Shown piece by piece: positions 14,853 through 61,755 of a stretch of DNA of 64,000 nucleotides. The stretch's first letter is position 1, and every line of letters starts with the position of its first letter. A program made the translations under genes and the position numbers. The notes under the pieces were generated by a model. That model had not been told where the DNA came from. It worked only from the letters and a program-made list of their open reading frames with translations, and ran no database searches. Source of the stretch: Eledone cirrhosa (lineage: Eukaryota); contig OZ024764.1 in NCBI GenBank assembly GCA_964016885.1, positions 10,106,001 through 10,170,000 of the forward strand, read 5' to 3'.

Positions 14853-14951
14853 CAATATATAAGCAGTTTTATAAATAAATTTGACGTACCATAAATATTG
14901 ATCAACTTTTATGTAAAAAGTTGGTTTGGTAGTATATATATATATATATAT

Positions 14952-15069
14952 ATAGGAACGAGTAGGACCCCGACGGCTGAGCTCAAGCCGTTTCGACGGC
15001 TAATTCTGGACCCAGAATTAGCCGTCGAAACGGCTTGAGCTCAGCCGTCGGGGTCCTACTCGTTCCTAT
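14952..15069. repeat. 58-bp perfect palindrome, 2-nt spacer
   Basis: 14952-15009 is the reverse complement of 15012-15069. Confidence 0.95.
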
Positions 15070-15462: not shown

Positions 15463-16670
15463 CCTATTCTCTCTCTCCCTTTCTCTCTCCTTCCTCTCTC
15501 CCTCAACACTCTCCCCCACTCCACTCTCTCCACTACTCTCTGCTCAACACTCTCTCTCTCTCCTCTCCATTCTCTCTCCTCAACTCTCTCTCTCTCCTCT
15601 CCACTCTCTCTCCTCTCCACTCTCTCTCCTCTCAACACTCTCTCTCTCCTCTCCACTCTCTCAACACTCTCTCTCCTCTCCACTCTCTCCACACTCTCTC
15701 TCTCCTCAACACTCTCTATCTCCTCTCCACTCTCTCTCCTCTCCACTCTCTCCACACTCTCTCTCTCCTCTCCACTCTCTCCACACTCTCTCTCTCCTCT
15801 CCACTCTCTCCACACTCTCTCTCTCCTCTCCACTCTCTCTCTCTCTCCTCTCCACACACTCTCTCTCCTCTCTCCACACTCTCTCTCTCCTCTCCACTCT
15901 CTCTCTCTCTCCTCTCCACACACTCTCTCTCCTCTCTCCACACTCTCTCTCTCCTCTCCACTCTCTCTCTCTCTCCTCTCCACACACTCTCTCTCCTCTC
16001 TCCACACTCTCTCTCTCCTCTCCACTCTCTCTCTCCTCTCCACTCTCTCTCTCTCTCCTCTCCACACACTCTCTCTCCTCTCTCCACTCTCTCTCTCCTC
16101 TCCACTCTCCTCTCCACTCTCTCTCCTCTCTCCACTCTCTCAACACTCTCTCTCTCCTCTCAACACTCTCTCTCTCCTCTCCACTCTCTCTCCTCTCTCC
16201 ACTCTCTCAACACTCTCTCTCTCTCCTCTCCACTCTCTCTCCTCTCAACACTCTCTCTCTCCTCTCAATACTCTCTCTCTCCTCTCCACTCTCTCAACAC
16301 TCTCCCTCTCCTCTCCACTCTCTCAACACTCTCTCTCTTCCATCCACTATCTCCTCTCCACTCTATCTCTCCTCTCTCTCCTCTCCACACTCTCTCTCTC
16401 CTCTCCACTCTCTCTCTCTCTCTCCTCCACACTCTCTCTCTCTCCACACACTCTCTCTCCTCTCCTCTCTCTCCACACACTCTCTCTCCTCTCCACTCTC
16501 TCAACACTCTCTCTCTCCTCTCCACTCTCTCTCCTCTCCACACTCTCTCTCTCTCCTCTCCACTCTCTCCACACTCTCTCTCCTCTCAACACTCTCTCCA
16601 CAACTCTCTCTCTCTCCACAACACTCTCAAACTTCACGTGTCTCTTGTCCCTCTCTCTCTCTCTCCCCAC
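15410..16670. repeat. CT-rich low-complexity tract abutting the exon A acceptor
   Basis: ctctccactctct-type units over about 1.2 kb. Confidence 0.95.
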
Positions 16671-16675
16671 TCTAG

Positions 16676-16759
16676 CGACTAATCTACCTCACTACCCCTG
16701 TACCATGGAAGCGCAAGAAGAAAACTGGTAAATCGAAGATAACGAACAGCCGAATATAA
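16676..16759 (+). CDS. DAT: DAT-like terminal exon A (short tail)
   Basis: Long pyrimidine tract, then ctctag|[27 protein letters not shown]; phase 0; paralogous to exon B. Confidence 0.75.
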
Positions 16760-16786
16760 CCCCTTGTTTCACCTCCCTTTTTGTAG

Positions 16787-16903
16787 CGCTTCAAATATTT
16801 GTTGACCCCAGTACCGGAGAAAAGACGCAAGAAGACTGGAAAATCCAAGAAAACCAACACTCGGATTAATGGAGGGAGTGGTGCAGTTGCTGAACAGGTG
16901 TGA
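16787..16903 (+). CDS. DAT: DAT-like terminal exon B (long tail ending EQV)
   Basis: cctccctttttgtag|[38 protein letters not shown]; RFxxLxTP is the usual SLC6 C-terminal motif. Confidence 0.85.
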
Positions 16904-17029
16904 ATATAATGTATATATATATAGCTATATATATGTATGTATATATATATATATATGTGTATATATGTATATATGTATGTATGTATGTATGTATATGTGT
17001 ATATATATGTATGTATATATGTATGTATG

Positions 17030-17981: not shown

Positions 17982-18421
17982 TAGAATGAGAGAAATAAAA
18001 GGTAAAATAGAAAGGTAAAGAGCGAGAAGAAAGAATGGAAGAAAAGAAATTGAGAAAAAGACACGTACATATTTAGTCAGCCATATTGGAAATTATATAC
18101 ACACACACATACACAATTATATACACACACACACACACACATTCACACACATATATATATATACTCTTTTACTCTTTTACCTGTTCCAGCCATCCGGCTG
18201 AAGTCATGATATATTTAATGTGTGTATAGTGAGTTATATTCATGTTCTTACAACATGGTCACGGATGTTTCAGCAATGCAGGTGTTCGCTAAGCTTCATC
18301 ATTCCCTAATGAAGCTTAGCTAACTAACATCGTGATGGTATTGTTAGAACAGGAAGAAATCTCAGAGCACCAGTAACGCACTGGGATAATTGCTGGCCTT
18401 TGTCCCAAAAGTAGAAACAAT

Positions 18422-59699: not shown

Positions 59700-61755
59700 C
59701 CTCCACCACAAACACTACCACCACCACCACCACCACTACCACCACCAACACCACCACCACCACCACTACCACCAACATCACCACCACCACCACTGCTACC
59801 AACATCACCATTACCCCCACCACCACTGCTACCAACATCACCATCACAACTACCACCATTACCACAACCACCACCACCAACACTACCATCACAACCACCA
59901 CCACAACTACCACCATCACAACCACCACCACAACTACCACCATTACCACTACCACCACCACAACTACCACCATCACAACCACCACCACAACTACCACCAT
60001 TACCACTACCACCACCACCAACACTACCATCACAACCACCACCACAACTACCACCATTACCACTACCACCACCACCAACACTACCATCACAACCACCACC
60101 ACAACTACCACCATTACCACTACCACCACCACCAACACTACCATCACAACCACCACCACAACTACCACCATTACCACTACCACCACCACCAACACTACCA
60201 TCACAACCACCACCACAACTACCACCATTACCACTACCACCACCACCAACACTACCATCACAACCACCACCACAACTACCACCATTACCACTACCACCAC
60301 CACCAACACTACCATCACAACCAACACCACAACTACCACCATTACCACTACCTCCACCACCAACACTACCATCACAACCACCACCACAACTACCACCATT
60401 ACCACAACCACCACCACCAACACTACCATCACAACCACCACCACAACTACCACCATTACCACTACCACCACCACCAACACTACCATCACAACCAACACCA
60501 CAACTACCACCATTACCACTACCACCACCACAACTACCACCATCACAACCAACACCACAACTACCACCATTACCACTACCACCACCACCAACACTACCAT
60601 CACAACCAACACCACAACTACCACCATTACCACTACCACCACCACCAACACTACCATCACAACCAACACCACAACTACCACCATTACCACTACCACCACC
60701 ACCAACACTACCATCACAACCACCACCACAACTACCACCATTACCACTACCACCACCACCAACACTACCATCACAACCATTTCCTCACCACTACCATCAT
60801 CAACAACACTACCACAACCACCACTACAACTACAACCATTTGCTCGCCACTACCAGCACCAGCACCACCACTACCATTTCCTCACCACTACCAGCACCAC
60901 CAACACTACCACCACTACCACCAACACTACCAACAACACTACCACCACCATTACCATTTCCTCACCACTACCAGCACCACCACCACTACCACCACTACCA
61001 CCACCACCAACAACACTACCACCACCACTACAATTACAACCATTTCCTCACCACTACCACCACCACCAACAATACTACTACCACCACTACCACCGCCACC
61101 AACAACACCACCACCACCACCACTACCACCGCCACCAACAACACCACCACCACCATTTCCTCACCACTACCACCACCACCACTACCATTTCCTCACCACT
61201 ACCACCACCACCACCACCAGTTCCTCACCACTACCACCACCACCACTACCATTTCCTCACCACTACCACCACCACCACCACTACCATTTGCTCACCACTA
61301 CCACCACCACCACCACCATTTCCTCACCACTACCACCACCACCACTACCATTTCCTCACCACTACCACCACCACCACCACTACCATTTGCTCACCACTAC
61401 CACCACCACCACCACCATTTCCTCACCACTACCACCACCACCACTACCATTTCCTCACCACTACCACCACCACCACCACCACCAGTTCCTCACCACTACC
61501 ACCACCACCACTACCATTTCCTCACCACTACCACCACCACCACTACAATTTCCTCACCACTACCACCAACAACACTACCACCACCACCACTACCATTTCC
61601 TCACCACTACCACCACCACCACCACTACCACCGCCACCAACAACACTACCACCACCACCACCACTTCCTCACCACTACCACCGCCACCAACAACACTACC
61701 ACCACCACCACCACCACCATTTCCTCACCACTACCACCAACACTACCACTACAAT
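59700..61755. repeat. (CAC/CAA/TAC) triplet-derived intronic repeat
   Basis: Lies between the exon 9 donor and exon 10 acceptor. Confidence 0.93.

Follow-up and report, generated by a model that had tools for sequence, protein, structure and literature searches.

In the C-terminal splice variants of the mammalian transporter NET, only the last few residues are swapped, for unrelated sequence. These variants differ in expression, trafficking and function, according to the available part of PMC2916826, the introduction of which, dating from 2010, states that splice isoforms of DAT had been unknown before that study. EAAT2a and EAAT2b (GLT-1a/b) differ only at the extreme C-terminus, and the PDZ ligand of one of them confines its diffusion (available part of PMC8076567). 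A further group of C-terminal isoforms derives from tandem exon duplication: in the portions of PMC8373072 and PMC9741552 that are available, 77 of 236 human substitutions of this origin affect the C-terminus, membrane proteins and isoforms of nervous tissue are over-represented in the class, and its C-terminal cases are credited to alternative poly(A) use; the term 'SLC6' has 0 occurrences in the main text of PMC8373072.

The DAT gene of the octopus Eledone cirrhosa resembles the NET variants in being a catecholamine transporter with alternative C-termini; unlike the octopus tails, the NET variants are not described as having a duplicated-exon origin in the available text of PMC2916826. EAAT2a/b, as presented in the available part of PMC8076567, are the best functional analogue of the octopus DAT tails, although they belong to another family (SLC1) and homology of their tails is not claimed there. 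With the tandem exon duplication class, as far as it is described in the available portions of PMC8373072 and PMC9741552, the octopus gene shares adjacent homologous exons (20 of 27 residues identical, 111 nt apart) and tails that are annotated in distinct coding transcripts (X1 and X2 of O. bimaculoides); it differs from that class in that its copies are compact, acceptor choice being likelier than poly(A) choice. The octopus DAT tails belong with the known tandem-duplicated C-terminal exon substitutions.

The window (the whole 64,000-nt stretch of DNA that was analysed) contains the 3' part of the gene, the earlier exons of which lie in neighbouring stretches upstream. Its features, in window coordinates, are the following, with the two copies of the terminal exon referred to as A and B:

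2 to 88, + strand: DAT coding exon, 5' end cut by the start of the window; Pfam SNF positions 335-363, 29/29 residues identical to XP_014777527.1
899 to 1027, + strand: DAT coding exon, phase 0/0
2090 to 2222, + strand: dead partial duplicate of exon 3324 and its upstream intron, outside the mRNA model
3324 to 3423, + strand: DAT coding exon
5749 to 5849, + strand: DAT coding exon
11588 to 11755, + strand: penultimate exon, last loop and TM12; 54/56 residues identical to O. bimaculoides
16633 to 16675, + strand: acceptor A region with TAG end; 95% pyrimidine tract, candidate branch point being a consensus match only
16676 to 16759, + strand: terminal exon copy A, 27 aa and TAA, tail end SRI; 25/27 residues identical to XP_052834150.1
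16756 to 16786, + strand: acceptor B region with TAG end; 90% pyrimidine tract, candidate branch points being consensus matches only
16787 to 16903, + strand: terminal exon copy B, 38 aa and TGA, tail end EQV; 36/38 residues identical to XP_014777527.1
17994 to 17999, + strand: first canonical AATAAA past the two stops, a candidate poly(A) signal for both forms

A single phase-0 donor (11755|GTAAGA) is common to both tails. The locus is flanked by long simple repeats, and the last intron contains a long near-perfect inverted repeat (14946-15066, between TA runs), which is probably the remnant of a small mobile element. Positions 17000-64000 of the window hold 143 stop-to-stop frames of at least 90 aa, one of which, near 59700, is a simple repeat of the CAC/ACC type.

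The Pfam domain PF00209 (SNF) was matched by all three body exons scanned, by two of them above the cut-off, and in the same domain scan neither tail had a Pfam match. The penultimate exon was 96% identical with the DAT of O. bimaculoides and 89% with SLC6A3 of Sepia, and its best PDB matches were DAT constructs of the Drosophila type, which ranked above NET, human DAT and SERT. Against the PDB, the O. bimaculoides orthologue (P0002) scored approximately 840 bits with Drosophila-type DAT, 720 with NET, 700 with human DAT and 667 with SERT. Judged by these match scores and the domain scan, the gene is an invertebrate-type DAT (SLC6), its nearest match being invertebrate DAT and not NET, SERT or GAT.

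Downstream of the common donor, two phase-0 TAG|C acceptors (16676 and 16787), 111 nt apart, each open a homologous tail; the open reading frames and their spacing were as the sequence-only reading had claimed, and a recount reproduced its figures of 20 identical residues among 27, 13 of these 20 encoded by different codons, and zero indels. Identity between A and B was 21/27, 21/27 and 9/27 at codon positions 1, 2 and 3, respectively, and the Nei-Gojobori proportions were pS = 0.85 and pN = 0.22 (Fisher p = 2e-6). A translated search of the species' own genome with tail B gave two matches among three candidates scored, namely B and A only. A profile built from the two tail sequences had 0 matches at E <= 0.001 among 1.84 billion representatives and also left the cephalopod tails unrecovered, which makes this result uninformative, and when short proteins were searched with the C-terminal 55 aa of P0002, two of three candidates matched, neither of them with a true tail. 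The position of the locus between long simple repeats could point to an assembly artefact, or the similarity could be due to chance, but either is extremely improbable: A and B are only 63% identical in DNA, an orthologous A/B pair in O. bimaculoides refutes this explanation, and one sequencing contig from each of two runs spans 16678-16908 without differences (both runs, of a type that is not stated, come from one sample, possibly the assembly's own, and are therefore not independent). These contigs, which begin just 3' of a repeat at 16620-16677, had neither joints nor loose ends and carry no information on splicing.

In O. bimaculoides, isoform X1 (XP_014777527.1, 682 aa) ends in tail B and isoform X2 (XP_052834150.1, 671 aa) in tail A. 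The two are identical except for the tail, so that the same two tails as in E. cirrhosa stand on the same body, with 36 of 38 (B) and 25 of 27 (A) residues identical; UniRef A0A0L8GWG7 has tail A as well. RefSeq isoforms are usually based on transcript alignments. The proposal that two isoforms are produced by choice of the 3' acceptor is supported by this pair, at the level of annotation and not of reads, and copy A is open and intact in this relative, neither absent nor disrupted in frame. The sequence-only reading also knew of no description of the arrangement, which holds for the papers that could be searched and fails for automatic annotation, where the arrangement is already present as RefSeq X1/X2. 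No paper on cephalopod DAT isoforms was found by title or by the start of the abstract, most subscription journals lying outside this search, and none was found that treats the tails of X1 and X2, which are automatic models, as homologous, duplicated or selected.

Every other cephalopod record that reaches the last exon has tail B, these records being annotations that do not imply the absence of A: one O. vulgaris model, which starts as B and then diverges, two partial Argonauta models, and four of four Logan proteins, which are decapodiform-like in that they match Sepia in the preceding exon. The two partial models (P0009 and P0013, Argonauta hians) lie on separate contigs and have a B-type tail in common, which in one of them ends in KIQ and not in Val; two haplotypes, a duplication or an erroneous model could account for the pair. 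At positions 13 and 21, A resembles the B of octopods and not the tail of the decapodiform-like proteins, suggesting, in a comparison made without an outgroup, that the duplication arose inside the octopod line.

An old duplication with purifying selection on both copies, as first read from the codons, is supported by the codon pattern, by simulation and by the intact A of O. bimaculoides. Simulated pairs were scored as matching when they had at least 20 identical residues, at least 13 synonymous ones and no stop. With B frozen at the protein level and A neutral since the duplication, the pattern appeared in 1 of 32,000 runs over eight branch lengths, and with both copies at omega 0.1 it appeared in 123 to 786 of 4,000 runs, depending on branch length. 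When constraint on A was lost recently, the pattern was obtained in 1,079 of 4,000 runs at t = 0.05 and in 416 of 4,000 at t = 0.1 (t being the extra substitutions per site), so the window data, taken alone, leave room for A having lost its constraint lately. As a control within the gene, the partial copy of exon 3324 (2187-2222, 32/36 nt identical) has an in-frame TAG stop and an intact CAG acceptor, and approximately 75 nt of its upstream intron can be aligned (0 of 1,000 shuffles reach the score), whereas the flanks of A and B are not alignable (956 of 1,000 shuffles reach the score). Since the dead copy is similar everywhere, including the intron, and A and B are similar at the protein level only, the A/B duplication is old and the dead copy young. 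The dead copy, at 2090-2222, constitutes a second acceptor-plus-partial-exon duplication within the DAT gene.

Between the two octopods, A differs at 2 of 27 residues, compared with 13 of 42 in a variable stretch of EL2 (Fisher p = 0.034), a comparator that was chosen post hoc because it varies most; over the complete EL2 exon, 105 of 118 residues are identical. All 13 differences of the EL2 exon (L006:1230-1589, upstream of the window, 118 residues) fall within this one 42-residue stretch. B differs at 2 of 38 residues, with 0 differences in the first 27, and A thus changes faster than B (2 versus 0 over 27 residues). This faster change, together with the use of B in most cephalopod records and the fit of a recent loss to the window data, would be expected if A were a rarely used or lately dying acceptor, once coding, the sequence of which is partly held by splice signals of B that lie within A; in line with this, the best-placed candidate branch point of B overlaps A's stop codon. 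However, A is free of stops and has the same end residue in two species in which the EL2 stretch is 13/42 different, it is annotated as an isoform in RefSeq, its acceptor is pyrimidine-rich like the constitutive acceptors of the gene, and splice signals of B would not hold, at the protein level, the first codons of A, which lie some 110 nt upstream, so that we consider a dying A improbable. It is quite probable that both forms are made and kept by selection.

The start of the duplicated exon coincides exactly with the SLC6 motif for ER export and the C-terminal helix in the SERT numbering of PMC3581386, the available part of which gives the register of the RI/RL/KL export motif and the +2 rule. 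The first eight residues of both copies are in register with this motif (Arg1, Tyr at +2, Thr7-Pro8): the motif reads RL in A and RF in B, Tyr occupies the +2 selector in each copy, position 8 is the invariant Pro, and the Phe of B departs from the L/I/V consensus. A switch between the SEC24C and SEC24D paralogues from one tail to the other was considered and rejected, the +2 residue being Tyr in both. In AlphaFold models of the two O. bimaculoides isoforms, which are built on 16-17 sequence alignments and have mean pLDDT values of only 59 and 66, a helix (642-650) crosses the exon junction, and disorder or low confidence is predicted past approximately residue 654. Translated tails must keep the helix and export part, which explains some of the conservation between A and B and had escaped the sequence-only reading. 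The basic K/R block that had been named as common to both tails is kept in A and B, in a region predicted to be disordered.

It could accordingly be argued that both isoforms are made and are functionally equivalent, A being kept only since an mRNA spliced to the upstream acceptor must encode a foldable and exportable tail. This account overlaps with the explanation preferred below and differs from it only in denying A a gained role; the conserved part does include elements on which folding depends, namely the helix and the export motif, and SERT tolerates removal of its last 15 residues (available part of PMC3581386). Conservation nevertheless extends to the basic block, predicted to be disordered, and to the stop position and four A-specific residues (Thr6, Trp11, Ile22 and Ser25), which are kept in both octopods, and over so long a time mutation of acceptor A would have been an easy escape, so that we regard equivalence as doubtful.

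In most SLC6 members an acidic residue is found nine positions past the export motif (available part of PMC3581386). This site is Glu in B and in all cephalopod B-type records and Trp in A of both species; it is Asp in the bivalve and insect records shown and Arg or Asn in gastropod records. Among protostome DAT records that include the last exon, cephalopods left aside, a terminal Val is present in 27 of 27, and R/K-[LIV]-[NT] occurs within the last 16 residues in 26 of 27; this set is partly redundant and leaves out the fused model P0001, a sea-cucumber GAT-like cluster, and P0005, P0041, P0042 and P0047, which have no last exon. The ancestral distal end, with R-I-N-G-G and the terminal Val, is preserved in B, and A stops just after R-I, in the middle of the motif, lacking the last 11 residues and exposing S-R-I. 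By this comparison of tail sequences, B is the ancestral-type tail and A a derived, truncated copy. The two copies, both intact, are not equal partners. PDZ ligands of the form S/T-x-hydrophobic are class I and those of the form D/E-x-hydrophobic class III. The different terminal patterns are as first read, with A ending in S-R-I and B in E-Q-V, ends which we take to be class I-like and class III-like, respectively, three-letter patterns of this kind being common by chance.

Upstream of acceptor A, the candidate that matches the branch-point consensus is TTCAC (A at 16636, position -40), and no other AG was found in the 197 nt scanned; for acceptor B, the candidates that match the consensus are ATAAC (A at 16759, position -28) and TTCAC (position -16). 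ATAAC (16756-16760) overlaps the stop of A, 16759 being the last base of this stop, and one triplet may serve two roles. Pyrimidines make up 90-95% of the tracts at acceptors A and B and 75-95% of those at the remaining acceptors of the gene within the window. The spacer between the stop of A and B, 27 nt long, contains neither AATAAA nor ATTAAA, and neither signal occurs before 17994. AATATA, a weak variant of the poly(A) signal, overlaps the stop of A at 16753-16758 and is also found downstream of the stop of B, and a private poly(A) site for A by way of this variant is possible. The 8-mer GAATATAA is present at 16752-16759, over the stop of A, and at 16902-16909, after the stop of B; this repeat may be accidental, may reflect a weak poly(A) signal common to both copies, or may be the trace of a 39-nt deletion.

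The explanation that we consider probable is that the last exon was duplicated in tandem and that donor 11755 is spliced to either acceptor of one composite last exon, giving two working DATs that are predicted to be alike in folding and ER exit and to bind scaffolds differently through their extreme C-termini, and hence to differ in anchoring. B would be the default, ancestral form. In its simplest version, A would have originated in the octopod line by a 111-nt duplication of the acceptor and the first 28 codons, which would account for its missing last residues without any deletion; alternatively, a duplication of the whole exon may have been followed by a 39-nt deletion. Given the 27-nt spacer and the first AATAAA only at 17994, an mRNA spliced to A would probably carry B as 3' UTR, and it would escape NMD, each of the two stops being located in the last exon; NMD of the A-spliced mRNA was rejected on the same ground. 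Coleoids show heavy recoding by editing, and A, spacer and B could conceivably be translated as a single frame, through stop read-through or A-to-I editing of two stops, the A-B spacing being 37 codons and the spacer being in frame and free of stops from TAA to TAG. With two stops to bypass (three edits), the second of which is simply the TAG of the acceptor, and an RNA structure that is ordinary (z = +0.38; 120 of 200 shuffles fold as well), such a fused product is very improbable.

If the two tails are produced by acceptor choice, as we prefer, the functional difference would most likely lie in anchoring, recycling or surface residence, through the lost or changed C-terminal ligand, and not in transport chemistry. 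Given that both forms are made and kept, the chances for and against a real difference in partner or localisation are about evenly balanced. In the octopus optic lobe, dopaminergic cells are among four large neuron populations, with dat as marker, and both dat-only and dat plus glutamatergic neurons are present (available parts of bioRxiv 2022.06.11.495763, a visual-system paper in two versions in which dat appears as a marker only). Tentatively, and with more doubt than confidence, a regulated octopod DAT switch can be envisaged, in which the ancestral class III-like Val tail and the new class I-like SRI tail without Glu11 would direct DAT to distinct scaffolds according to the dopaminergic population (e.g. 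in the optic lobe, the dat-only neurons and those that are dat plus glutamatergic), with the branch point of B possibly lying inside the stop of A.

The general principles are unchanged by this locus, duplicated terminal exons and transporter tail variants being well known. Each gene model adopts only one of the two tails, and for O. bimaculoides both Iso-Seq and bulk RNA data exist; probes or 3'-end counts cannot separate the isoforms because B would lie in the 3' UTR of A. For octopod biology, two selected DAT tails would provide a testable handle on where dopamine clearance is localised in the optic lobe.
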